Sequence record: PZ379598.1
Reading direction: 5' to 3' (one strand)
From: a phage
Length of the DNA: 40,118 nucleotides
In this document: piece by piece, positions 858-27,299 of the stretch
How the letters are laid out: every line of letters begins with the position of its first letter
Position numbering within the stretch: position 1 is the first letter of the stretch
The notes under the pieces: model-generated
What the model was told of the DNA's origin: nothing
What the model saw: only the letters and a program-made list of their open reading frames with translations
Databases searched by the model: none
Program-made: the position numbers and the translations under genes

Positions 858-2624
858 CTAGTGGAACGTAACGTATGCCCCTAGTCCAAGCTCGTCGTCC
901 GTATCGTGAGTTACCCGGACCCCATTGTCCCAGAACTCAGTGTGGATGGACTCGAAGCCTTTCCGTGGGTTCTCCATCTGTTCCTCCAGCCACTCCTCAG
1001 TGACTTCACGTTCTCCTTTGTTGGCATCCTTAGCCATAGACTCAACGAAGAACTGTACACCGATAGCCAGCGCATCAAGTCGGTCATCGTGTGCCAAGGC
1101 TCCACGTTCACGAGAGATACGTGTCATCTGGTAGAAGAGAGAGTAGATAGGGTTACGAACACCATCCTTATCAGAGGCCGACTGGTAGTCTTGGACGATA
1201 GCAGCAGCGTTAACGATAAGTCGGTGAGACCCCATGATAGGCTCCAGAACGTCACAGATGCGGAGTTCTTTCTGACCCTTACTCTTCACTTCAGTTACAG
1301 CCGCAGGATGGATACGGGCCGCTACAGGCTTGAATAGCTCAAGGTACATACCATCACCGAAGTTACCCTCAATGACGTATTCGTTGACCTTCCACTTACG
1401 ACCAATCTTAGCCAAGGCTTCCAGCGTAGAGTCTTCATAACCACCACGCATACCACCAACTTCCATAGCGAAGATGTAGCCGTTGAGCTGGTACAGTACC
1501 GCATAACCAGTTTCATCCTTACCACGACCACTAGGGTCAATGACCAGAATCTTCTGGGTGTACGAGCTAAAGGCAGAGCCTACAGTCTGATACGTGTGGT
1601 ACGAGTCACCCATGAGTCCAACGTTAGGAACGTCCTCACGCTTGTTCTGAGGGTTCGGCAACCATTGGTAGACCATTGGGCTGGACGCTGGGTCCAAGTC
1701 GGCTACGATAAGGTCACGGAGCTTCAGAGGGTACTTCTCGGCATCACTCAGGTTCGGGTTAAGCATGAACTGTAGAGCGAAGCCAGCTTTACCGTAGGAC
1801 AGCTCACGTTCCTTCAGGTCCGTATCATCGAAGCGTACTTCATCAGTCGGACGCCAGTAGAAGGACTCAGGGTCCTCTTCCAGCTCTGCCTGAAGCATAG
1901 GAGCCAGACGGTCGCCGTAAGACTGCCAGTCCTTCCTGTCGCGTGGATAACGAGCGGGCCAGATAGTAGTGGTGTACCCACGACCTTCCAGCTCACGGTA
2001 CAGGGTCATCTCGTTCTGAGGAGTACCCAGATAGATGATCGTACCTCCCGGCTTCAGGATAGCGTCGAACTCTTTCACAAGCTCTGATAGACGGTCTCGT
2101 GCAGCCTGAGTCGCTGAGTTGTTCGGAACCTCCACGTCATCGGCAATCAGGATGTCAGCACGACTACCAGTCAACTGACCAGTGATACCAACGGACTTAA
2201 CCGAAGGTGAGTGGTCTGGCTTGGCAGGTCCCACGTCGAAGCTGATAACCGCATCTCGCTGCCCCTGTTTAGGTTTGAGTTCCTGAAGCTGAGGCATGAG
2301 GTCGATGATTCGCTTGATGAAGATGGAGTTCGCATCGGCTCGTTCCTTTGAGGCCGACACAATCATGAACTTCAAGTCTGGGTTATTCCATAGCTTCCAG
2401 ACCACAAAGCCACAGGTCAAAAACGACTTGCCAATACCACGGAACGCCTGAAGGATGAAGCGGCGATTATCCCCAGCAGCCAGCTTCTTACACATATCTA
2501 TCTGGCAGCGGGTTGGAACCGGAAGACTTAGTGCTTTCCAGAGAACGAAGATGAAGAACACGAAGTCGTCCCTCATCCTTTGGACCATTTCTGCCTGTCT
2601 TTCAGCGGGTGTTTTCTTAGACAT
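858..2624 (-). CDS. gp19: Terminase large subunit (T7 gp19-like)
   Basis: 588 aa; near-colinear identity with recalled T7 gp19 ([58 protein letters not shown]). Confidence 0.95.
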
Positions 2625-3054
2625 ATAGTCCCTCCAGCATTAGGTCCCGGACAGCGATAGACTCCTCTAAAGTGGGACGTGTTGTTCGCATATAGGCATT
2701 CCCGCGTTTAACCTGAATCCTATAACCATTCTGGTGACGGGTAACGCACTTCACTCCTGTCTTAGAGTCATAATGGCTACCAGTATTCCAAGTGTTTTCA
2801 GCGGCAGTAACGAGCCGTAAGTTACTTAAGGTATTATTGCTAGGGTTCCTGTAGATGTGGTCTATTTGCATACCATGCGGTATAGGACCATTGGTTAGTT
2901 CCCATATCACACGATGGGCCCGCTTACTGCCTAGACTTCGTGTCTGTACTATCCAATATCCCATCCGACTTAATGTTCCCACAGGCTTTCCAGTCCTAAC
3001 GGAGACCAGACCGGATGGACTAGCCGGGTCCACTTTGTAGTAATCACTTAACAC
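2617..3054 (-). CDS. HNH homing endonuclease
   Basis: 145 aa with an HNH core ([41 protein letters not shown]); overlaps the spanin 3' end and the terminase start. Confidence 0.8.
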
Positions 3055-3496
3055 CTTGGAGCCTCCTTATTGTGTCCTGAAGCGCCTTCTCCTTAAGGTC
3101 TGCCTCCTGAGTTAATCGGATAAGACTTTTAGAAGTTTCTGGGTGTAGTTCGACTCTACCATTAGGGAAGCATCTACTGACATCTGACTCGGTGAGACCT
3201 GAGGTGTTGACTCGGACGCGCAGCCGCTTGTTATCGCGGTTAAGGTCAGCAATAATCCTATCAGTAGAGCCTTCCAGCGCGGACATCTTGTCTTGCCACT
3301 CGGCTGACACTTTGTTGATTTCACCTTGGACAGCAGCCCGTTGATTCTCTCGTGCCTCAAGTTTCGTGATGTACTCATTGTTTACCTTCGCCTCCCACTT
3401 ATTGTCTGCCACCCAGTAGCCAGAACAGAACAGGAGTCCTGCAACCAGCCACGGGATTGCTTTACGTAAAAGTTCGAGCATAGTTGCCCTCCTCAT
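3044..3496 (-). CDS. gp18.5: i-spanin (Rz-like, T7 gp18.5-like)
   Basis: 150 aa; N-terminal membrane anchor then coiled-coil; matches recalled T7 gp18.5 (LRKLIPW..AG.LF, EGSTDRII.DL..DNKRLRVRV, LQDTIR.LQ). Confidence 0.9.
   Translation of the reverse strand: MRRATMLELLRKAIPWLVAGLLFCSGYWVADNKWEAKVNNEYITKLEARENQRAAVQGEINKVSAEWQDKMSALEGSTDRIIADLNRDNKRLRVRVNTSGLTESDVSRCFPNGRVELHPETSKSLIRLTQEADLKEKALQDTIRRLQGVK
3112..3378 (-). CDS. gp18.7: o-spanin (Rz1-like) embedded in the +1 frame of the i-spanin gene
   Basis: Embedded ORF with a hydrophobic stretch followed by a lipobox-like TSGC and a Pro/Ser-rich tail; embedded Rz1 architecture is typical for T7. The true start is probably downstream of the ORF-track start. 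Confidence 0.65.
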   Translation of the reverse strand: MSTSRNLRHERINGLLSKVKSTKCQPSGKTRCPRWKALLIGLLLTLTAITSGCASESTPQVSPSQMSVDASLMVESNYTQKLLKVLSD

Positions 3497-6903: not shown

Positions 6904-6953
6904 TATGCCTCCTTTGTGATTTAAATGGAGACCTATGGTAGCGCCTCCAGTTT

Positions 6954-6971
6954 CCTATAGTGATAGTTTAG
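6954..6971 (-). promoter_or_regulatory. Phage RNAP promoter (phi17 analogue)
   Basis: Plus-strand CCTATAGTGATAGTTTAG; upstream of the tail fibre gene. Confidence 0.8.
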
Positions 6972-9900
6972 TCCTTGATGTGGATGCCTTGCTCCTCAAA
7001 CGTTCCAAGCAGCAGCTTCTGGGTAATGGGGTCGTTCGGAACCAGTTCACGTAACGTATTATACATCCCGGTCATGTAGTCACGCTCGTTGACACGAGTA
7101 TCAGCCTTGAGGTAGCCAGCCAAGTTGTAAGCCGAAGCGCCAACGTTAGCAGCATATCCGAAAGCTGGAACCTGCTCCAAGAAGTTACCAACAACATTCA
7201 TCACAGGGTCACTTGTAGCTGCACCATACGCGATGGCACGCTCAGGCTTCTCTGTAGGAGAACGAGGTAGGATAGACGAACGGAGCATCTTAGTGTCCTC
7301 ATATCCAGCGATGCCTCCCAGAATGTTAGCTACCCCAAGTGGGCCACCAAGATGTGAACTACGGGACAGGGCCGCATAGCCAATCATCGTTGGGTCCAGA
7401 GCTTGCTTAAGGTAGTCACGGTCTCGACCATCCTGCATAGCATAAGCCTTGACATGCGCCTGAGCCATGTAGTAGATACCAGCCAGACCCATAGACATCA
7501 CGGTCGACAGTGCAGCGTCAATCGCTCTGTTGTTCTTCGTGGCGTTATAGAAGGTTCGCATGGTTCTCCCATTGATAGACTTGATGACGAAGTTCTTAAA
7601 CTGAAGTACAGTCTTAGCGAGAGGACCATAAGCCTTGGCGTCCATGTTTGACAGCTTATGAGGCCGGAGTAACGTCTCGTCAGCGATGGTGTCACCCATA
7701 CGCCACAGGTCCATAGCCCTTGGGTCCTGACTGAACGCCTTCTTATCCTTGATGGTGTACTTCCCGTCTGGCCCACGAGTCACTGACTCACGGATTAGGG
7801 ACTTAATTCCACTCCACTGCTCGTCAGATATACCAGCGGTCTTCAGCCAGCGGTCATCGAACTTACGCTTACTACCAGTCAGGCTATGCTCCACGATGTC
7901 AGACAGGAAGCCTTGACGTCCAGCATCTAACAGGTAGTTGGTCGTACCGTTGAGGACTTTAGTGAACGGAGAGCGTACTGCAAGTTCACCAGTGTAATAC
8001 TTAGCAGTCCCCAGAGCTGTAGCTGTACCACGACTAAGGTCACTGTAAGATCGCAGACGGTCGATAACATCCTGTTTAGACGGACGGATTGAGTCGTCCA
8101 ATTCTTTACCGAAGATAACATTATGCAGGTCCTTAATCTCCGAGGCCCCAACCTTCTTGTTACGGAAGGCTAGGTCACGGAAAATTGGGACTCCATGAAG
8201 CATTGCACGAACGTTACCACGAGCCAGCATACCACCAATCTCCGTTAAGTTCTGAACACCCATGTAGGCATTCTTAGCGAAGAACGATAGGTCTGTCATT
8301 GTGCGCATCACTGTAGCGAAGGCTGCATCATCAGCACCATCACGTCGAGCACGACCAGTGAGAATCTTCAAGGTGTCACGTAAGGTAGATACCTCACCTT
8401 TCAACTTACCGTCATCCCCAGCCTTGTTCATCATGGTCTCAACCAAGTCCTTCATGTCCTTCGTGGTCTTTCCTGTACCAGCCATGATAGCGATGTCCCC
8501 ATTAATTCTACGGTTGTACGCCGGAACAATCTTGTCCATGTCCCACTCACGCAGATTGTTGACACTGAACGTCTGACCGTTAGGTAGGACGATTGACATA
8601 TCGCTATCGAACAGGTTACGAGCCTCAAGGAAGCTGTTGTTCTCCAGACCCACCAGACCATTGATGTTCTCTTCCATTACGGATGAACGCTCGAACTGCT
8701 CGGTGTGAGAGATACCATAAGCCTTATCGTTGGCGTACTTATCGACCGCAGCCGCAAGTCCTTCTGGAGTCAACGTAGGGTCAGCCTCTAAGAGTGCCTC
8801 GTCCACACGTTTCTTGACCTCAGGTCGAGACGCATAGCTGGTCAACCATGACTTCTTGATGGCCTCCTGTAGTGCCTCTGGACTTCCAAGCTCCTTGATG
8901 TACAGCTCCTTCATCTGTTTGCTATACACATGCGGGACGTAGGTTCCCTTGAAGTGGCTACCCGGAAAGATAGACTGAGCGTCTGGACGACCAAACATCG
9001 CTGGGTTCTCCATCATCTCACGCTTGGCGTCGAACTGGTTCTTCAGTAGGTCATAGACTTTCATTTCTCCCGGAGTCAGTTCAGCCTTCAGGTTTCCGCT
9101 ACCGTCTTCGATAGCCATAGACACACGCTGGTAGATGTCCTGACGGAATGCGCCAGAGTCTCGCCAGAATGCAGTCTGGAAGTACGGGTCCTTTAGTGCC
9201 TCAGTAACCGCATCGTCGATGTCGTTGTAGAACCGATGGTCCACAGAACGAAGTCTCTCGAACACGTCTGACGCAGTTGTCCCGATTTTACCTGAGGCCC
9301 CAGACTGCATACCAGTAGGTGAACGCACTAAGTCAGCAGCTACTCCACGAATCTCAGGGTTCTCAGACCGAAGCAGCTTCAGGCCAATCTCGGTAAGTCC
9401 ACCAAGGTTCACACCAGCAGCGGCACGTTCCGGCTCAATCACTTCGTCAAAGACTTGACGTGTCTTAGGGTTCAGAGGGTTCTCACCAATCAGGATTGAA
9501 CCGTCTTCCAGTCGTACACTTCCCGGCTCATTCGGAACGTCAGCGAACTTAACGCCTTGATGACTAAAGGTCTGCTCACCTTCCTGAATAGGTAGACGAG
9601 ATAGGTCCTGACCATCAACGTTACGAGCAGTCTCACGAGCTTCCAGACGTGTAGCTGGACCAGCAAACTCATTAGTGTTGCGGCCTAAGGCTCTACCTAG
9701 TCCATCAGCGATAGCAGTCATACCGCCACCGAAGAGAGCACCACCAAGGATAGCTTCAGCCACATGAGCATCACCACCAGCCACTGAGGTACGTGCCATC
9801 TCAGACACACCAGCCAGTGCTCCAGATTGAGCCGCCACTGTGAACATCTTGTTTACCAGCTTACCGCCCTTACCAACCTGTCCAGCAATAGGAACGTAGG

Positions 9901-10855
9901 TCAGAGGGTCCACACCAGCGCCAATCACACCAGCGGCTAACTGAGCACCAGTCCCAGCCTTGGCCTTCTCTTGGTCCAACTTCTGGTTCTCAAGCGCCAA
10001 GTTAATAAGCTCGGTCAGGTTCTGAGGAGAGCCTCCAGTAATGACTCCGTAATACTGAGGCAAAACACCAGCGTTACGAATCTGGTCTAGCTCCTCACGA
10101 GACCACTTATGGTTGTTCCATCTGGTTGGGTTGAACACATCGCCAATGACATCCAGTGAGTCCTCAGTCTGACCAGCTCGTATAGCCACGCCGACCATAG
10201 AGTTCTTCACTTCAGCTTCTGTAGCCGCACCGAAACCGAACCACGTAGAGCGGTCCTCTTGCTCCTGCATGGTCTCTCCAGTAGCCTTATAGAACATCTC
10301 ACCGAACGATTCGTTGGGAGCTTCAGGTGCTTGACCATCAATGTTCAGACCAGCAGCGGTCGGAAGGTTCTCACCCAGAGCTACTTTAGGTTTAGCCTTG
10401 AGTCCTTCCGTGAGTGCGTCAAATACGTTAGCGCTTACTGGTGGAGTCTTTGGGCTAATGCCATTGAGTGCTCTTGCGACTCCCTTCTGATAGACTTCTG
10501 GGTCGTACCGGGAGCCTGTCTCATGGTAGCCGATAGCCTCAGACAGAGAGGCGAGGACATCATGGTTCGTCAGGTCGATACTTTGTGTTGCTGGAATACC
10601 AGTCGCAGCCACAACAGAGTTGATGTAGGACTGAGTGTCGTTCTCGCTCGGAGGTGCCCATCTGTTGATAATCTTCTCGATAGAGTCATAACCTTGGCGA
10701 CCGTAGCTTTGAAGGGTTTTCGCTAATGCTCTGACCCCAGATTCAGGACTGTCGAAGATAACGAATGCACCATCATCGCCTATAGCACCTTCCCACTGGT
10801 CTTTGGACTTACGGATATTGCCCGGATTTGCGTTCCTTACACCACGTGTTGCCAT
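6968..10855 (-). CDS. gp16: Internal virion (core/ejection) protein D (T7 gp16-like) with a divergent N-terminal domain
   Basis: 1295 aa; long colinear similarity to recalled T7 gp16 from about residue 185 onward (STWFGF, TRWN.H.W..EEL, VTGGSP.NL, VRSPTGMQSGASGK, MENPAIFG, NGDIAIMG.TGKTTK, RAMDLWR). The first ~180 aa do not resemble the T7 transglycosylase domain. Confidence 0.9.
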   Translation of the reverse strand: MATRGVRNANPGNIRKSKDQWEGAIGDDGAFVIFDSPESGVRALAKTLQSYGRQGYDSIEKIINRWAPPSENDTQSYINSVVAATGIPATQSIDLTNHDVLASLSEAIGYHETGSRYDPEVYQKGVARALNGISPKTPPVSANVFDALTEGLKAKPKVALGENLPTAAGLNIDGQAPEAPNESFGEMFYKATGETMQEQEDRSTWFGFGAATEAEVKNSMVGVAIRAGQTEDSLDVIGDVFNPTRWNNHKWSREELDQIRNAGVLPQYYGVITGGSPQNLTELINLALENQKLDQEKAKAGTGAQLAAGVIGAGVDPLTYVPIAGQVGKGGKLVNKMFTVAAQSGALAGVSEMARTSVAGGDAHVAEAILGGALFGGGMTAIADGLGRALGRNTNEFAGPATRLEARETARNVDGQDLSRLPIQEGEQTFSHQGVKFADVPNEPGSVRLEDGSILIGENPLNPKTRQVFDEVIEPERAAAGVNLGGLTEIGLKLLRSENPEIRGVAADLVRSPTGMQSGASGKIGTTASDVFERLRSVDHRFYNDIDDAVTEALKDPYFQTAFWRDSGAFRQDIYQRVSMAIEDGSGNLKAELTPGEMKVYDLLKNQFDAKREMMENPAMFGRPDAQSIFPGSHFKGTYVPHVYSKQMKELYIKELGSPEALQEAIKKSWLTSYASRPEVKKRVDEALLEADPTLTPEGLAAAVDKYANDKAYGISHTEQFERSSVMEENINGLVGLENNSFLEARNLFDSDMSIVLPNGQTFSVNNLREWDMDKIVPAYNRRINGDIAIMAGTGKTTKDMKDLVETMMNKAGDDGKLKGEVSTLRDTLKILTGRARRDGADDAAFATVMRTMTDLSFFAKNAYMGVQNLTEIGGMLARGNVRAMLHGVPIFRDLAFRNKKVGASEIKDLHNVIFGKELDDSIRPSKQDVIDRLRSYSDLSRGTATALGTAKYYTGELAVRSPFTKVLNGTTNYLLDAGRQGFLSDIVEHSLTGSKRKFDDRWLKTAGISDEQWSGIKSLIRESVTRGPDGKYTIKDKKAFSQDPRAMDLWRMGDTIADETLLRPHKLSNMDAKAYGPLAKTVLQFKNFVIKSINGRTMRTFYNATKNNRAIDAALSTVMSMGLAGIYYMAQAHVKAYAMQDGRDRDYLKQALDPTMIGYAALSRSSHLGGPLGVANILGGIAGYEDTKMLRSSILPRSPTEKPERAIAYGAATSDPVMNVVGNFLEQVPAFGYAANVGASAYNLAGYLKADTRVNERDYMTGMYNTLRELVPNDPITQKLLLGTFEEQGIHIKD

Positions 10856-11286
10856 GTCTTTCTCCTCAATATATTTCGTATGGAAACGACGCTTACCCCG
10901 TATAAGGTGGAAAGCTCAGATACTTTTAATGGACTGGAGCGTATTTCCCTAACAGATTCCTCTGTCAGTATAGCTCTGCCTGCTCCACTACCTCTTGCCT
11001 GTCGGCCTCTGGATACCTTATCTGCAATGTTGTCAGCCTGCGTTCCTACTTCAAGGTGTTCAGGATTTATGCATGATGGATTATCACATTTATGCCTAAC
11101 AACATAGCCATCTGGTATTGGCCCCTTATTTATGGAGTAGGAGAGACGATGTGCCATATACTTAACCCTAGCCACCATTATCCTTCCGTATCCTTCTCCG
11201 TCTAAGTGGCCTGTGAATCGGATACAGCCAGACTCTTCAGCTACTGACAGTTCTGCCAGTCTCTCACTGGCTGTCCCGTTCTTCAT
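10837..11286 (-). CDS. HNH homing endonuclease with C-terminal helix-turn-helix-like tail
   Basis: 149 aa; HNH core (GYGRIMV...HRLSYSINKGPIPDGYVVRHKCDNPSCINPEHLEVGTQADN); wedged between the gp15 and gp16 genes. Confidence 0.8.
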   Translation of the reverse strand: MKNGTASERLAELSVAEESGCIRFTGHLDGEGYGRIMVARVKYMAHRLSYSINKGPIPDGYVVRHKCDNPSCINPEHLEVGTQADNIADKVSRGRQARGSGAGRAILTEESVREIRSSPLKVSELSTLYGVSVVSIRNILRRKTWQHVV

Positions 11287-11288
11287 GT

Positions 11289-13571
11289 TTACTCCTTACC
11301 GATTAGTACGTTTGCGATACCCTCCAGTGAGACGTCATTGTACATCCCACCGCGCTTCTCGATGTTGGCCTCTCGGTCAGCTCGACGTTTGTCGCCAGCA
11401 GCTTTAGTCCCGACGATACGCGAACGCTTGTTAGCGTCACGTTCTGCCTGAGCGTATGCGGCATCTTGTGCCTTCTGCTGTTGTTCGCGGTAGAGTTTAC
11501 CTACAAGTTCTTTATCGTAGCGAATACGAATAGTCCCTGTAGCGTCTTGGAGGAAGATAGAGCCGTTCTGTTCAACAACGGACAACTGAGAGTTCACTAC
11601 CCAAGGGTTGGCCTTAATGAGCTGCTTACGAGCGGTGTCGATAATGTCTCGACCAACCTGCCACGACTCTGGGTTATCCCCGACCATAAGCTGGTGCTTT
11701 GACACCATGCCGATGGACTTACCGTCAGAACCTTCAGACTGGAACGTTACGGTATTTTCATTCAGCCATCGTTGAGTCTGCTGAGTTGCAGCATCAGCGT
11801 TACCTGTACGGTAGTACCATGAGTCCCATACCTTACGAGCACTTGAGTCCAGAGACGTTGGGAGGCGAGACAACTGGGTGTTCTTGGAGTCGTTCTTCAG
11901 CTCCTGCCACGCCTTGTCTGACTCCATGCGCATCTCACGGCTTTGACTTGCAGCTTGCTTATCAGCTTCAATCATCGTCTGAGGGTCCAGACCCATCTTG
12001 TCCATCTGGTCGAACGTAGAGAACAACTGAGCTTGGTCAGGATACAGAGCAGCAAAACTTGAAGGGTCCTGAGTGTAGGCACGACGAAGAGACTCGAAGC
12101 GTTGCATCTTGTCTGGGTCGTACTGTCCACGGATGACCGCAGCTTGCCACTCACCAGCAGCGTCCTGAGTAAGCGTCTGGAATGCATTACGGAACGGACC
12201 GTTGTTAGTGTCAGCTCTTAACAATGCCACCTTCTGAGCGTCCTTAGCAGCCTCAGGGATGTCCATCTGGTCAATCTGCTGTAGCTTTGCAGACGCATAG
12301 TTGTTCATGTCTGAACGCTTGAACTCTCCTGTAGCTTCAGAGACCGGAAGGTCCTCATAGTTGGTGGACACGTTGTCCCCAGCCAGACGTCGCTGATACA
12401 CTTGGTCGATGACCAGTTGCTTGTTCTGAGTCTGGATTAACTTAGTGTTCTCCTTCGCCTGTTCAGCAGACTTACGCTTGACCGCTTCCAGTAAGCTGGC
12501 TTCGGCATTAATAAGCATCTGACGCTGAGGCGTGAGTTCTTCCCCCGGCTGAAGCAGGTTGTTCTGCTCCTTGAGTTTCTGAATCTGGGCCAGACCGATG
12601 GTTGGGTCGTCCTGAAGAATCGCAGACTGAACGCCTAACGATAAGTCTTCCTGATACTTAGCCACCAACTTGTACTCGGTACCTTGAGCCTCAACCACAG
12701 CAGCATTGAAGACGTCAGGGCCTACAATCTCTTCGATGGTAGCATCAATACCGTTAAGGGTGATACGCTCGCCACGGACTTGCTGTAGGAAGTTTGAGCC
12801 TCCTGACTTCTGGATTGCGTCACGGACCGTCTGGGTGATTACCTCTCGTGCTCGCTGGTCCGAAGGGATAGCAGCAGTCGTCAGTCCATCCCGAAGGTAG
12901 GCCATGAAGGTCTTTCCAGACTCAGGCGAACGCATCAGGTCCCCATCGTTAAGGAACGAGTTCATCTCAATACGAGTGTTCAACATTGCTGTCTCTTCAG
13001 ACTGCTTGCTGAAATACTTATTGAAAGACCCATAGATAGCGATGTTTCGGTCTGTGATGTTATCGTTGAACCCGCGCTGAAAGAACTCGTCGGTAGGGTT
13101 AATACCCGCCTCTTCAGCATAGGACTTAGCGGCGTCCTGAAGTCTCTGGTGGCGATACTCTTCCATGTCCTGACGTGTACGGAACTCACCGTTCTGAATC
13201 TTAACGTTAATCTCGTCATCAACCGCAAAGGCAGCGTTACGGCCCGTCTTGACTCGAAGTGCTTCCATAGCGTAAGGGTCATCCTGATACAGCAATGTAC
13301 CGTTCTGAATAGCCTCACGTCTTTGCTGAGGTGTCAGCTTACGGATAATCTCGTTAGACCGCTCGTCGGCCCGTGTCTTCTCCTCGTCTTTGAACTGCTT
13401 GTATAATCCAGTACCAGACTCAACGAAGTTGGTTAACGCCCGAGCAAGACCTGAGTCACCAGTTGGAGCCTGAACGCTGGCTGCTTGATAGTTGACGGCG
13501 ATAGTTTTACCCGGAGCCCTGCCACGACCCATAGTCCGATTAGCCAGAGCTGATTCAATATTACTAGCCAT
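11289..13571 (-). CDS. gp15: Internal virion protein C (T7 gp15-like)
   Basis: 760 aa, located between the gp14 and gp16 homologues; size and position match T7 gp15 (747 aa). Confidence 0.8.
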   Translation of the reverse strand: MASNIESALANRTMGRGRAPGKTIAVNYQAASVQAPTGDSGLARALTNFVESGTGLYKQFKDEEKTRADERSNEIIRKLTPQQRREAIQNGTLLYQDDPYAMEALRVKTGRNAAFAVDDEINVKIQNGEFRTRQDMEEYRHQRLQDAAKSYAEEAGINPTDEFFQRGFNDNITDRNIAIYGSFNKYFSKQSEETAMLNTRIEMNSFLNDGDLMRSPESGKTFMAYLRDGLTTAAIPSDQRAREVITQTVRDAIQKSGGSNFLQQVRGERITLNGIDATIEEIVGPDVFNAAVVEAQGTEYKLVAKYQEDLSLGVQSAILQDDPTIGLAQIQKLKEQNNLLQPGEELTPQRQMLINAEASLLEAVKRKSAEQAKENTKLIQTQNKQLVIDQVYQRRLAGDNVSTNYEDLPVSEATGEFKRSDMNNYASAKLQQIDQMDIPEAAKDAQKVALLRADTNNGPFRNAFQTLTQDAAGEWQAAVIRGQYDPDKMQRFESLRRAYTQDPSSFAALYPDQAQLFSTFDQMDKMGLDPQTMIEADKQAASQSREMRMESDKAWQELKNDSKNTQLSRLPTSLDSSARKVWDSWYYRTGNADAATQQTQRWLNENTVTFQSEGSDGKSIGMVSKHQLMVGDNPESWQVGRDIIDTARKQLIKANPWVVNSQLSVVEQNGSIFLQDATGTIRIRYDKELVGKLYREQQQKAQDAAYAQAERDANKRSRIVGTKAAGDKRRADREANIEKRGGMYNDVSLEGIANVLIGKE

Positions 13572-14625: not shown

Positions 14626-14657
14626 AAAGTCTCCTTATAACCTTAAGGGCCTATAGT

Positions 14658-14677
14658 CCCTATAGTGATAGTTAAGG
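14658..14677 (-). promoter_or_regulatory. Phage RNAP promoter (phi13 analogue) embedded in a 12-bp inverted repeat
   Basis: Plus-strand CCCTATAGTGATAGTTAAGG, flanked by AAGGGCCTATAG (14645-14656) and its exact reverse complement CTATAGGCCCTT (14683-14694). Confidence 0.8.
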
Positions 14678-14701
14678 TAAATCTATAGGCCCTTCAATAA
14701 G

Positions 14702-24264: not shown

Positions 24265-24470
24265 AGGCATCCTCCATGTTGGTTCAGGAACTTGGTGCCA
24301 GCAGCGGTAATCTCCCACGCACCGTTGTTACGCCCGTCCATAGACAGACAGCTCAGATGTCCACGACTCGCAGCCTCAGCCACCAGTGCCGCATTGTTGC
24401 GCACGTAGTTGGACTGGAAGGTCTTCGGGCAGGACTTAAGGGCCGCTAGGACCCGTAAGTATTCACTCAT
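24261..24470 (-). CDS. gp5.7: T7 gp5.7-like protein
   Basis: 69 aa; near-identical to recalled T7 gp5.7 (MS.YL.VL.A.KSCPKTFQSNYVRNNA.LVAEAASRGH.SCL...GRN.GAWEITA.GT.FL...GGC). Confidence 0.9.
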   Translation of the reverse strand: MSEYLRVLAALKSCPKTFQSNYVRNNAALVAEAASRGHLSCLSMDGRNNGAWEITAAGTKFLNQHGGCL

Positions 24471-24760
24471 TGCTTGACCTCGAATCGCAGGTTAGATACT
24501 CCGAACTGGTCATAACCAAAGTCGTCTACCAGCTCCTCCTTGATGGTCTTCTTGAGGGCAATTTCAAGGGCAGACTCAGGGCCTGACTCGATTGCGGTTT
24601 TGACCAGAGCCAACTGAAGACCATCCAGCTTCTCACCCTCAGCGTAGGCTTTAGTCATCTCAGCCAGTTGGCGACACATGGTATCTTCTTCCTTTGAGTT
24701 AACAACCATCTTCAGATCAAAACTCACACGAATACGTTTAGTAATAGCCATTAGTGACAC
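24467..24760 (-). CDS. gp5.5: T7 gp5.5-like protein (in T7, binds host H-NS)
   Basis: 97 aa; position and the N-terminal MA.TK...VSFD pattern match my recollection of gp5.5, with moderate certainty. Confidence 0.6.
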   Translation of the reverse strand: MSLMAITKRIRVSFDLKMVVNSKEEDTMCRQLAEMTKAYAEGEKLDGLQLALVKTAIESGPESALEIALKKTIKEELVDDFGYDQFGVSNLRFEVKQ

Positions 24761-25176
24761 TCCTTCTTAACAAGTTTGCGCTCACGGTTCGTCTTAATGA
24801 CGTGTTCGCGTTTTGTAATACACTGTAGATGCTCTATGTTGCAGCACCCACGGTTCAAGCACAAATGGTCTATTTCGTAGCCATTTGGTATAGGTCCGCG
24901 CTTCTGCTCCCACACCCATCGGTGGAACATGAAGGCGAACTTGTTGCCCTTCCTGTAGCTTCCCATGGAGTACCGGAAGTACCCATCTTGGTTCCTCTTG
25001 TGGGACACGCAGACGATACATCCGGTAGGCATGGTGTGGAAGCGTATGGTCTGGGTTCGAGGGTCAATGACACTCTTTCCACGTTGGTCCAATCTTACCC
25101 TCCGTATCAAGTTCACACTTGAAGTTATAGAAGCGTCCGACCTCGCGCATCGCCTCTTGAGCAATACGGACGACAT
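24751..25176 (-). CDS. HNH homing endonuclease overlapping the DNA polymerase 3' end
   Basis: 141 aa with an HNH core (CIVCVSHKRNQDGYFRY...FHRWVWEQKRGPIPNGYEIDHLCLNRGCCNIEHL); AGGAGA upstream of the ATG at 25176. The first ~113 nt overlap the polymerase C-terminal codons in another frame. Confidence 0.75.
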   Translation of the reverse strand: MSSVLLKRRCARSDASITSSVNLIRRVRLDQRGKSVIDPRTQTIRFHTMPTGCIVCVSHKRNQDGYFRYSMGSYRKGNKFAFMFHRWVWEQKRGPIPNGYEIDHLCLNRGCCNIEHLQCITKREHVIKTNRERKLVKKECH

Positions 25177-27235
25177 CTTCTGCTATCTCCTGAGTACGGC
25201 ACGCTATCTGCAATTCATCGTGAATCCAAGCCATTAGCGCAAAGTCGCCGTCCCATCCGTTACCGTAACCAGCCTCTTCAAGTTTCTTCTCAGTCAGTAC
25301 CATCCAGTGCTTACAGACAACCGCACCGTCCCCCTGAAGTAGGGCGTTAAGTGCTGAGTGTGGAGACCGGATGTGAATACGACGACCATCCAGACCTTTC
25401 AGCCAGCGACGTTTCCACTTGACGATATTCTCACCGTCCACCCACTTAGAGTCTGAGATTAACGTATTACTCACAGCTTCCCTGAGGTCCTTGATGGCTG
25501 GTGTACCCTCAATGAATTTCTTCATCAGAGCTGAACCTTCCTTCTTACCACCGCCTACTATCAGTCCAATCTTAGCGGCCCCTGCACCATACAGGAACGC
25601 GTAGATGAACGTCTTAGCGTTGTTACGGAAAGCCTCATGGTCGTGGTTAGACTTATCGCGTTGGACGTTAGGTGCTAACCCAGCGTTTACTGCGTTGGCC
25701 CAGTGGATGTCACCTTCTACCACAGTCTTCGCATATGCACCACCGTCAAACGGAGCCGCTCTGTTCCCAAGACAACGAAGCTCAAGACCTGAGGCATCCA
25801 CACCAACTTGAATCCAAGGGTCTGGCTTACCGTCCTTCTTGTTCCACGCTGCACCGAAAGCACCACGGCAAGTCTCACCATATGGAGCACCGTTAGCCGG
25901 GACCTGAGCCATGTTTGGTGAACTATGGGTCGCACGTCCGGTTACTGCCCCGCATGGGTTTATTGAGCCGTGCATACGTCCGTCTGGACCTACAAGTTTC
26001 AACCATGCGTTCTTACCTTCAGCAGCCTGACCGATGCGCTTCTGGACTACCAGGTACTCACGGACCAGCTCTACGCAAGCCTGAGCCTCTGCGTCTGGTA
26101 ACTTAACGTGTTCCAACGTCTCGTCATCGACTACAGGTTTCCCGGTGTCAGTGAAGTCCACAGGCTCCCAGCCACGCTCCATCAGAACTTTCGCTAAGTG
26201 GTCTCCGCTTCCCGGATTAAACTCAACGTAAGTGATAGGTGTGAACGGCGCTCCCTCCATCGTGTCTCGTGAGTCGAACTCGCAAGGCTCCAGACCTAAG
26301 CGTTGAGCTTTGTTCTTCGGCTTCTTGAATACTGACCCGACCTTCGGATACACGACTCGCGGATACTTCGGAAGGTCCTTGCCTGTCCGTGGGTGCTTGA
26401 AGAACTCCTTGCCTCCCTTTGGTGCGTACCAGCTGCCGAAAGTCGAACGCAGCTTGTCCAGCAGCTCTGCACGTTTGACGGTGAGTTCACGATATAAACC
26501 TTCGACCATCTCGGTGTTCATCGGATAGCCGTTACGCTCCATCTTCGCACAGGTCCACGCAGCATCATGTTCCAGACGCAACGCATAAATCTGGTCGAAA
26601 GCGAACTGTTCAGACTGGAAGTAATACTTGTCAGTCAGGAACTTCTTGAACAGCGCCAGCGTGACCACAACGTCTTGAACGTTATAGTCCAGCATCTCCT
26701 GAGACGGGAACATCCATTCGTCCCCAGCCTTATATTCGATACCTTCGGCCTTGCACTTGGCAACGTAATCGTGTTTGTACTCACCCTTCATCTCACCAAG
26801 ACGATAGCCCCAAGCCTCAAGAGACTGGCGTCCCATCATCTTAGGAGGCAGACGACCAGCTTTCACCGCGCCCATGTCTGAGAACTTAATGTTTGGATAC
26901 ATCAAGCGGCCTAGCACCAAGGTATCAATCATCTTGTGTTTCGGGAAGTTAAAACGTTTCCCAAAGTACAGACGCTTCAGCTTGTCTATAGCAGGGACGT
27001 CATAGTTGATACCGTTGTGAAATACCAGCATACCATCAGGCGATGCGGCAATCTCTTCAACTTTATGAACATACTCTTTGAAGCCACCGACGATACCGAC
27101 CATCGGAGCTACCCCATACTTAAGGGTCTCATTCGACTCGGCGTTAATCAGGACCCCACAGTGAAACTGGGAGACTGTATCAAGGAGACCGTTGGTCTCG
27201 ATGTCAGAACCCCAGATACTCTTAAGGTCAAACAT
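25064..27235 (-). CDS. gp5: DNA polymerase (T7 gp5-like, family A)
   Basis: Identity with recalled T7 gp5 (DIE.N.LL..V..FHCGV, FHNG..YDVPA, LEAWGYRLGEMKGEYK, DYNVQDVVVT, C-terminal LDTEGK.GP.W..CH). Start taken at internal ATG 27235 (GGAGGA 6 nt upstream); the track start at 27271 lies inside the upstream hairpin. Confidence 0.95.
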   Translation of the reverse strand: MFDLKSIWGSDIETNGLLDTVSQFHCGVLINAESNETLKYGVAPMVGIVGGFKEYVHKVEEIAASPDGMLVFHNGINYDVPAIDKLKRLYFGKRFNFPKHKMIDTLVLGRLMYPNIKFSDMGAVKAGRLPPKMMGRQSLEAWGYRLGEMKGEYKHDYVAKCKAEGIEYKAGDEWMFPSQEMLDYNVQDVVVTLALFKKFLTDKYYFQSEQFAFDQIYALRLEHDAAWTCAKMERNGYPMNTEMVEGLYRELTVKRAELLDKLRSTFGSWYAPKGGKEFFKHPRTGKDLPKYPRVVYPKVGSVFKKPKNKAQRLGLEPCEFDSRDTMEGAPFTPITYVEFNPGSGDHLAKVLMERGWEPVDFTDTGKPVVDDETLEHVKLPDAEAQACVELVREYLVVQKRIGQAAEGKNAWLKLVGPDGRMHGSINPCGAVTGRATHSSPNMAQVPANGAPYGETCRGAFGAAWNKKDGKPDPWIQVGVDASGLELRCLGNRAAPFDGGAYAKTVVEGDIHWANAVNAGLAPNVQRDKSNHDHEAFRNNAKTFIYAFLYGAGAAKIGLIVGGGKKEGSALMKKFIEGTPAIKDLREAVSNTLISDSKWVDGENIVKWKRRWLKGLDGRRIHIRSPHSALNALLQGDGAVVCKHWMVLTEKKLEEAGYGNGWDGDFALMAWIHDELQIACRTQEIAEDVVRIAQEAMREVGRFYNFKCELDTEGKIGPTWKECH

Positions 27236-27258
27236 GGTTAATCCTCCGTTTAGTCTAA

Positions 27259-27299
27259 TCATAAAGGCCACTCTATGTGAATGACCTTGAGTCTAGACC
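27259..27299 (-). promoter_or_regulatory. Putative RNase III processing hairpin (R4.7 position, before the DNA polymerase gene)
   Basis: Minus strand GACTCAAGGTCATTCACATAGAGTGGCCTTTATGATTAGAC: a 10-bp stem with G-U pairs, nearly identical to my recollection of the T7 R1.1 core (AAGGUCAUUCGCAAGAGUGGCCUUUAUGAUUGACC). Confidence 0.65.

Follow-up and report, generated by a model that had tools for sequence, protein, structure and literature searches.

Why does a gene for an HNH endonuclease stand between two genes for internal virion proteins of a T7-like phage, and is it a mobile element? The locus in question lies in sequence record PZ379598.1, a stretch of 40,118 nucleotides (nt) that we analysed at its full length and call the window. 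A sequence-only reading had pointed there to a 149-amino-acid (149-aa) open reading frame (ORF) at 10837-11286, between the genes for gp15 and gp16, and had taken it for a free-standing homing endonuclease that invaded a conserved junction. The ORF is real and lies on the minus strand, which that reading had left unstated; it starts with ATG and ends with a TAA stop codon at 10837..10839 (minus strand). Judging from sequence comparison, we consider it most probably an active free-standing homing endonuclease gene (HEG) of the T7 gp7.7 / Pfam HNH_3 family. This interpretation is supported by its presence or absence at one junction, by a one-sided tract of divergent sequence in gp16, and by diverged alleles under purifying selection. 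The window belongs to Kayfunavirus and comprises a complete T7-like genome, which is given in reverse orientation, with every long ORF on the minus strand. Over the region tested, its closest public record is Kayfunavirus PDP21P1 (96.5 % identity), and its relatives, K1F-like phages, infect Escherichia, Salmonella and Citrobacter.

Occupied and empty junctions among relatives

The loci of 34 relatives (4-7 kb each) were fetched and aligned, the stop codon of gp15 and the start codon of gp16 serving as anchors. In the search with the region, the 20 best-covering rows (18 distinct phages) of about 222 related phage records included the extra DNA, and in every other listed row the match was split in two, some 429 nt being absent. 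When the insert alone was the query, 18 records showed a related gene at the corresponding position, and six further records (GA2A, TM1, Ro45lw, Pipis) carry a second, more distant allele at the site. Thus, at least 24 of the ~222 records carry the gene at the gp15/gp16 site, and about 200 do not.

Empty sites read gp15-…GGTAAGGAG-TAA-CATA-ATG-gp16 or …TAA-TAACA-ATG…, the two junction types having TAACATA or TAATAACA directly before the ATG; HEG-lacking phages of the common type, such as pO91, read …GGTAAGGAGTAACATAATGGCGACTCGTGGTATTCGCAAT…. Filled sites contain 429-432 nt extra between the gp15 TAA and the gp16 ATG, and the HEG is positioned exactly between these two codons. Among genomes with 90-97 % identity, the gene is present or absent at one precise junction. 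This synteny comparison bears out the proposal that the gene was inserted into an otherwise contiguous core-protein operon, since close relatives lack 429-431 nt at exactly this place. The description of the target as an intron-less junction did not hold, because no intron is involved and the gene is intergenic and free-standing. Both neighbouring genes are complete without splicing, which is not the arrangement of the I-HmuI-like group I intron class, and Rfam found no intron in the window at gathering thresholds, with chance-level matches only at E-values up to 1.

A divergent tract on the gp16 side

The closest HEG-lacking relatives compared were five (L005, L006, L007, L026 and L012), and to these the last 500 nt of gp15 in the window are 95-100 % identical. 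Identity in gp16 was 63-67 % over nt 1-60, 72-84 % over approximately nt 60-300 and 92-97 % beyond; the final identity bins of some loci (35-57 %) were disregarded because those loci end early. The proportion of differing synonymous sites (pS) was 0.76-0.91 in gp16 codons 1-17, 0.62-0.69 in codons 18-60 and 0.40-0.53 in codons 61-112, compared with a background of 0.10-0.21 in the remaining gp16 and 0.13-0.19 in gp15. This contrast indicates that the first ~336 nt of gp16 are of different, much more distant origin than the remaining genome. The raised divergence is confined to the downstream (gp16) side of the insert, and we presume that gp16 codons 1-112 represent a co-conversion or immunity tract.

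Among relatives the tract is mosaic. ST20, SD6, PH1061 and CR44b have the window-type gp16 sequence for differing lengths and then the common type, and SD6 matches the window tract over about its first 50 nt only. The HEG alleles and the gp16 tract have also been reassorted: SD6 has a HEG 99 % identical to that of the window and a tract 82 % identical, while in PH1061 the values are 71 % and 94 %, respectively.

The HEG itself exists in at least three allele groups at this site, namely window/SD6/ST20, CR44b/LNA5/PH1061 and GA2A/TM1/L024. Between groups the pS of the HEG reaches 0.66-0.77, near saturation, in genomes whose gp15 is 95-98 % identical. All nine HEG alleles compared are exactly 149 aa long, and the ratio of nonsynonymous to synonymous substitution rates (dN/dS) was 0.03-0.31 for pairs with estimable dS, so the alleles are under purifying selection. 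The first 33 nt of the HEG, 11254..11286 (minus strand), read ATGAAGAACGGGACAGCCAGTGAGAGACTGGCA and are the same in all four HEG-carrying sequences aligned, which represent two allele groups that elsewhere are near saturation at synonymous sites. Possible reasons for this identity are gene conversion extending inward from the conserved end of gp15, or a constraint of translation initiation. A small inverted repeat, CCAGT-GAGAG-ACTGG, lies within these 33 nt.

Family, predicted fold and conserved residues

Pfam HNH_3 (PF13392) matched residues 43-86 of the HEG protein (profile positions 1-44 of 46) with an E-value of 1.2e-13 and 50.9 bits, the gathering cut-off being 24.8, and PHROG HNH families matched it with a best E-value of 1.5e-34. 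The HNH core claimed earlier thus stands, profile searches having found the homology on which the claim depended. A database search yielded 563 homologues, one of them identical (P0001), and an alignment of 59 homologues showed that C21, H65, C67, D68, C72, H77, G81, N86 and R95 are invariant, with N69, N74 and H46 conserved in at least 90 %. His65 would be the catalytic residue and Asn86 a metal-binding one, and Cys67, Cys72 and His77 are probable ligands of a structural zinc site. Since all invariant residues are present in the window copy, the putative catalytic His, metal-binding Asn and probable zinc site are intact.

The AlphaFold2 (AF2) model of the protein had a mean predicted local distance difference test (pLDDT) score of 93.7, with strands at residues 62-65 and 78-81 and a helix at 83-92, a predicted beta-beta-alpha-metal fold. 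The N-terminal 42 residues are probably a DNA-contacting domain resembling that of I-HmuI. A PDB sequence search with the protein gave zero matches at E-values up to 1.

The final 45 residues form three helices that match helix-turn-helix (HTH) DNA-binding domains, including those of Tc3 transposase and Hin, and the CR44b record annotates an HTH there as well, in agreement with the HTH-like tail described before; Pfam by itself gave no recognition of the tail. Distant homologues retain the tail module ending R-x-T-W-x-H-V and some have it in duplicate, which suggests that the tail is a repeatable DNA-binding unit. This agrees with the description of phage HEGs as shuffling their domains (PMC10448857). 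The homologues P0068, P0094 and P0101 carry a second copy of the module, 'LTExxVxxIR…TWxHV', behind the first.

Shared coding and takeover of the ribosome-binding site

The sequence-only reading had put the overlap with the gp16 start at 19 nt, which proved exact (Table 1). The two genes use the overlap in different frames, and the gp16 ATG is at 10855..10853. In HEG-lacking genomes, the AAGGAG at the end of gp15 is the Shine-Dalgarno sequence of gp16, and in the window it serves the HEG. In PH1061, SD6 and ST20 the HEG ATG occupies the exact position of the empty-site gp16 ATG, directly after TAACATA, which indicates that the insert took over the AAGGAG ribosome-binding site. A second motif, GAGGAG, is found in all HEG-carrying loci and is absent at empty sites; its sequence and position suggest that it functions as the ribosome-binding site of gp16.

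Five gp16 substitutions (nt 6, 9, 18, 19 and 21) accompany the HEG in every allele group. They are synonymous in gp16, and in the HEG frame they change W-R-L-V-V-F… to W-Q-H-V-V-stop, restoring the conserved TWxHV end and providing the stop codon. Because each of them is required by the overlapping HEG frame, they leave the cut position and immunity unproven, and we rejected them as proof of where the target lies. The five substitutions may serve both the coding overlap and target-site immunity.

Proposed homing and its alternatives

Taken together, the tract, its mosaic, the reassortment and the deep alleles would most simply be accounted for by repeated break repair from a donor genome, a mobility pattern that agrees with the description of other phage HEGs (PMC10448857). 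We propose that, in a mixed infection with a HEG-lacking relative, the enzyme would bind a long asymmetric site that lies at the gp15/gp16 junction or in the first tens of nucleotides of gp16, the presumed carrier of the target. It would then nick or cut this site, and an I-HmuI-like nick would be turned into a break by replication; the single HNH domain suggests a nick, by analogy with I-HmuI. The T7-type recombination machinery would mend the break using the HEG-carrying genome, copying the HEG plus a variable length of the donor gp16 5' end. The donor site would be protected by the split of the junction by the insert, by its differing gp16 5' sequence, or by both.

Several points weigh against this interpretation. 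Cleavage, nicking and homing by the HEG protein are predictions from sequence; we know of no characterisation of the activity of T7 gp7.7, and to our knowledge none of the three has ever been demonstrated for it. The HEG-linked gp16 substitutions are fully accounted for by the dual-coding overlap. In addition, HC13 and MirsaeidiM_Esher6/7 lack the HEG yet have a HEG-type gp16 start, which in HC13 (L029, 1856..1862 region) and MirsaeidiM_Esher7 (L030) reads ATGGCAACACGTGGTGTAAGG, preceded by TAATAATA. These three may represent resistant empty alleles that persisted once the HEG was lost, or may carry the gp16 allele in which a HEG first settled. A complete linkage of HEG and gp16 tract is rejected on these genomes, which have the tract without the HEG, and on SD6, which has the HEG with its short tract. 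T7-like phages are generally mosaic and about 6 kb around the site were compared, so general recombination could explain part of the pattern. Finally, the divergent tract also contains amino-acid changes (proportion of differing nonsynonymous sites, pN, 0.08-0.22), and ordinary allelic variation of the gp16 N-terminus is therefore possible.

It is unlikely, in our estimate, that the gene is instead a retained accessory nuclease that benefits the phage, its homing having ceased or never occurred. Possible roles would be marker exclusion of co-infecting relatives, degradation of competitor or host DNA, or tuning of gp16 translation, and the patchy distribution would then reflect ordinary recombination and loss. 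Strong purifying selection over deeply diverged alleles would fit such a role, as would a family that is widespread, with many homologues in other contexts, and the embedding of the HEG in the gp16 translation signals, which means that any loss must be precise. HEGs of other phages have also been argued to shape genetic exchange and competition (PMC10448857). However, about 90 % of close relatives lack the HEG and have the simpler junction, which shows it to be dispensable, and donor break repair predicts just such a flanking tract, one-sided and variable in its end-points. Since cutting rivals is mechanistically the same as homing, this alternative differs more in emphasis than in mechanism.

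That the gene is an inactive or decaying remnant of a past invasion, kept since its deletion would harm gp16 expression, is improbable given that the window copy is untruncated and retains all conserved catalytic and zinc-site residues, that dN/dS is well below 1, and that the compared alleles do not differ in length. Decay does occur in some lineages, as indicated by truncated database relatives of 130 aa (P0038 and P0041), 122 aa (P0042), 123 aa (P0046) and 90 aa (P0056), and the HEG-type gp16 starts of HC13 and Esher6/7 would fit a cycle of gain and loss.

That the ORF arose by chance, or is a structural or packaging component (an HK97 gp74-like terminase-associated HNH protein, or a virion protein), is hardly credible: despite its location among virion-protein genes and the known packaging factors among terminase-adjacent HNH proteins, discussed for another HEG (PMC8861465), profile E-values of 1e-13 to 1e-34 exclude chance, most relatives lack the gene, the terminase large subunit gene (858..2624) is ~8 kb off and adjoined by a different HNH ORF, and the CR44b record notes mass spectrometry matches for genes 14, 15 and 16 and none for its orthologue of the HEG, 7.7C, so that both the terminase-associated and the virion-protein role were rejected.

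An active free-standing HEG is thus the interpretation we favour. A further, joint proposal is more tentative, and we think it rather doubtful as a whole: that the HEG entered through the overlap frame, that HC13 and Esher6/7 are naturally resistant, and that a full cycle of invasion, spread and loss can be traced within the genus. For the entry step, an ancestral …T-W-x-H-V C-terminus would have been encodable in the -1 frame of the conserved gp16 start (M-A-T-R-G); 19 nt would consequently be shared, and gp16 translation would depend on a ribosome-binding site within the HEG. Spread would take place together with the linked gp16 N-terminal allele before loss, and the endonuclease would mainly be a weapon driving that allele through co-infecting populations (marker exclusion).

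Genome setting and further HNH genes

Genes 15 and 16 of Citrobacter phage CR44b, whose record gives their products as internal virion proteins seen by mass spectrometry, are the co-linear counterparts of the two neighbour ORFs, and the gp16 ORF is also co-linear with the gene-16 annotations of pO91, HC13 and ST20. A motif resembling a phage RNA polymerase promoter, (A/T)A(A/G)CTATCACTATAGG(G/A)(A/C), occurs in nine copies on the minus strand of the genome, and these copies define its transcription units. The motif scan found zero copies between 14679 and 6974. We therefore rejected an own promoter for the HEG, which is transcribed within the late operon.

Table 1 Features of the HEG locus and related elements in the window.
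Feature	Position	Strand	Basis or remark
HEG, T7 gp7.7 family, 149 aa	10837..11286 (including stop)	-	ORF list, Pfam, PHROG
N-terminal beta-rich region, residues 1-42, including invariant Cys21	11161..11286	-	
HNH (beta-beta-alpha-metal) putative catalytic core, residues 43-86	11029..11160	-	Pfam, residue conservation, AF2
C-terminal three-helix HTH module, residues 105-149, with final family motif R-x-T-W-x-H-V	10840..10974	-	
19-nt dual-coding overlap, HEG end (W-Q-H-V-V-stop) / gp16 codons 1-7 (M-A-T-R-G-V-R)	10837..10855	-	sequence
AAGGAG Shine-Dalgarno, made by the final two gp15 codons	11292..11297	-	junction comparison
GAGGAG, putative Shine-Dalgarno for gp16, inside HEG 3' end, 6 nt before gp16 ATG	10862..10867	-	sequence
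Divergent tract, gp16 5' end, codons 1-112	10520..10855	-	identity and pS profile; mosaic among relatives
gp15, internal virion (core) protein C	11289..13571	-	760-aa ORF, upstream neighbour of HEG in transcription direction
gp16, internal virion protein D with lytic transglycosylase domain	6968..10855	-	1295-aa ORF, downstream neighbour
Nearest upstream phage-RNA-polymerase promoter-like site (CTTAACTATCACTATAGGGA)	14653..14679	-	motif scan
Next promoter-like site past HEG	6948..6974	-	motif scan
Promoter-like motif starts	37635, 34314, 32652, 23273, 20454, 19466, 14679, 6974, 765	-	motif scan
HNH_3 ORF, 145 aa	2617..3054	-	E-value 9.6e-19
HNH_3 ORF, 141 aa	24751..25176	-	E-value 9.5e-20
97-aa ORF after polymerase-associated HNH ORF	24467..24760	-	

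The earlier count of the HEG as the second HNH endonuclease gene is correct, as it is the middle one of three HNH_3 ORFs. The 145-aa ORF lies between the Rz-like lysis gene (3044..3496) and that for the large subunit of the terminase and overlaps both. It is sporadic, with 14 of 261 related records covering at least 80 % of the region and Ro45lw lacking ~370 nt, and it corresponds to a HEG with 397-bp deletion variants in Hafnia phage Ca (PMC8861465). The 141-aa ORF overlaps the DNA polymerase ORF (25064..27271, minus strand) by 113 nt at the 3' end of the latter. This region varies among relatives: it is ~310 nt shorter in PM129 and ZCEC02, and the annotation of CLB_P1 shows a split polymerase and a homing endonuclease. 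A putative group I intron with gp5.3 has been described in K1F (PMC4925675). At the polymerase-associated HNH ORF of the window, Rfam gave no intron at gathering thresholds and chance-level matches only at E-values up to 1.

Implications

The locus adds a further case of homing endonuclease genes residing at junctions of essential phage genes. The HEG marks a recombination hot spot at the gene 16 start, and mosaic N-termini of gp16 are to be expected there in annotation and in phage engineering. Since the HEG appears to carry the gp16 ribosome-binding site, careless deletion would probably lower gp16 expression. Many genomes with and without the HEG, diverged alleles and both empty-site types make Kayfunavirus a convenient natural test system, suited to homing and marker-exclusion tests of the T7 gp7.7 family.

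Comparison with known systems

The gene is already known, as orthologues are annotated as homing or HNH endonucleases at the same site. CR44b gene 7.7C (YP_009007181) has the gene 15/16 site, the length of 149 aa and the 19-nt gene 16 overlap, all as in the window, and is 83 % identical in amino acids, with synonymous sites near saturation (pS 0.66); GenBank labels it 'predicted homing endonuclease' and places an HTH at aa 106-127. GA2A has a Kayfunavirus orthologue of 7.7C, and TM1 is annotated with 'HNH homing endonuclease' at the gp15/gp16 site. PH1061, CHRF_10022, EFA-1 and EPr2 have HNH or homing endonuclease annotations there, and identical or 97-100 % identical copies occur in PDP21P1, 22664UKE3-2, SD6, T147P5, ST20 and CHRF_10022. 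In papers on related phages, genes of this kind are routinely counted among the mobile elements (PMC4925675, PMC8861465). What we add is descriptive: the dual-coding overlap together with the captured ribosome-binding site, the divergent tract on one side, and empty sites with a HEG-type gp16 start. These three additions leave the category unchanged and do not make the gene a new kind of element.

Among T7 proteins, gp7.7 (NP_041994, annotated as HNH endonuclease) is 48 % identical (E-value 8e-39, HEG residues 21-148 versus 4-130). The match spans the HNH core and the HTH tail, and the T7 tail ends in TWRHI, a form of the family ending TWxH[VI]. Both genes are small and free-standing in a T7-like late region; however, that of T7 is located between genes 7.3 and 8 rather than 15 and 16, and its 130-aa product lacks the first ~20 residues of the HEG protein. 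T7 gp3.8 gave a marginal match (34 % over 32 residues).

I-HmuI of Bacillus phage SPO1 (PDB 1U3E), a nicking HNH homing endonuclease, has the layout seen in the predicted fold of the HEG protein: a beta region that binds DNA at the N-terminus, followed by the HNH core, a helical linker and, at the C-terminus, an HTH. Identity is 17-21 %, and the relation is visible at the fold level only. The gene for I-HmuI lies within a group I intron, in a DNA polymerase gene, whereas the HEG is free-standing and intergenic. Moreover, the invariant Cys/His set of the HEG suggests a structural zinc site, which I-HmuI is not known to have.

Free-standing phage HEGs that cut a neighbouring essential gene include those of T4 MobE and the Seg proteins, T3 gene 5.3 / I-TslI ('collaborative homing') and the HEGs of ICP1. 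Like that of the window, they are intergenic beside a conserved essential gene, sporadic, and carry flanking sequence along. The Seg proteins belong to the GIY-YIG nuclease family, different from that of the HEG, and the sites of all these HEGs are different as well. HEGs are located at the boundaries of exchanged segments (PMC10448857). Compared with these free-standing HEGs of T4, T3 and ICP1, the HEG of the window additionally takes over the ribosome-binding site of the adjacent gene, with which it has 19 nt of coding sequence in common.

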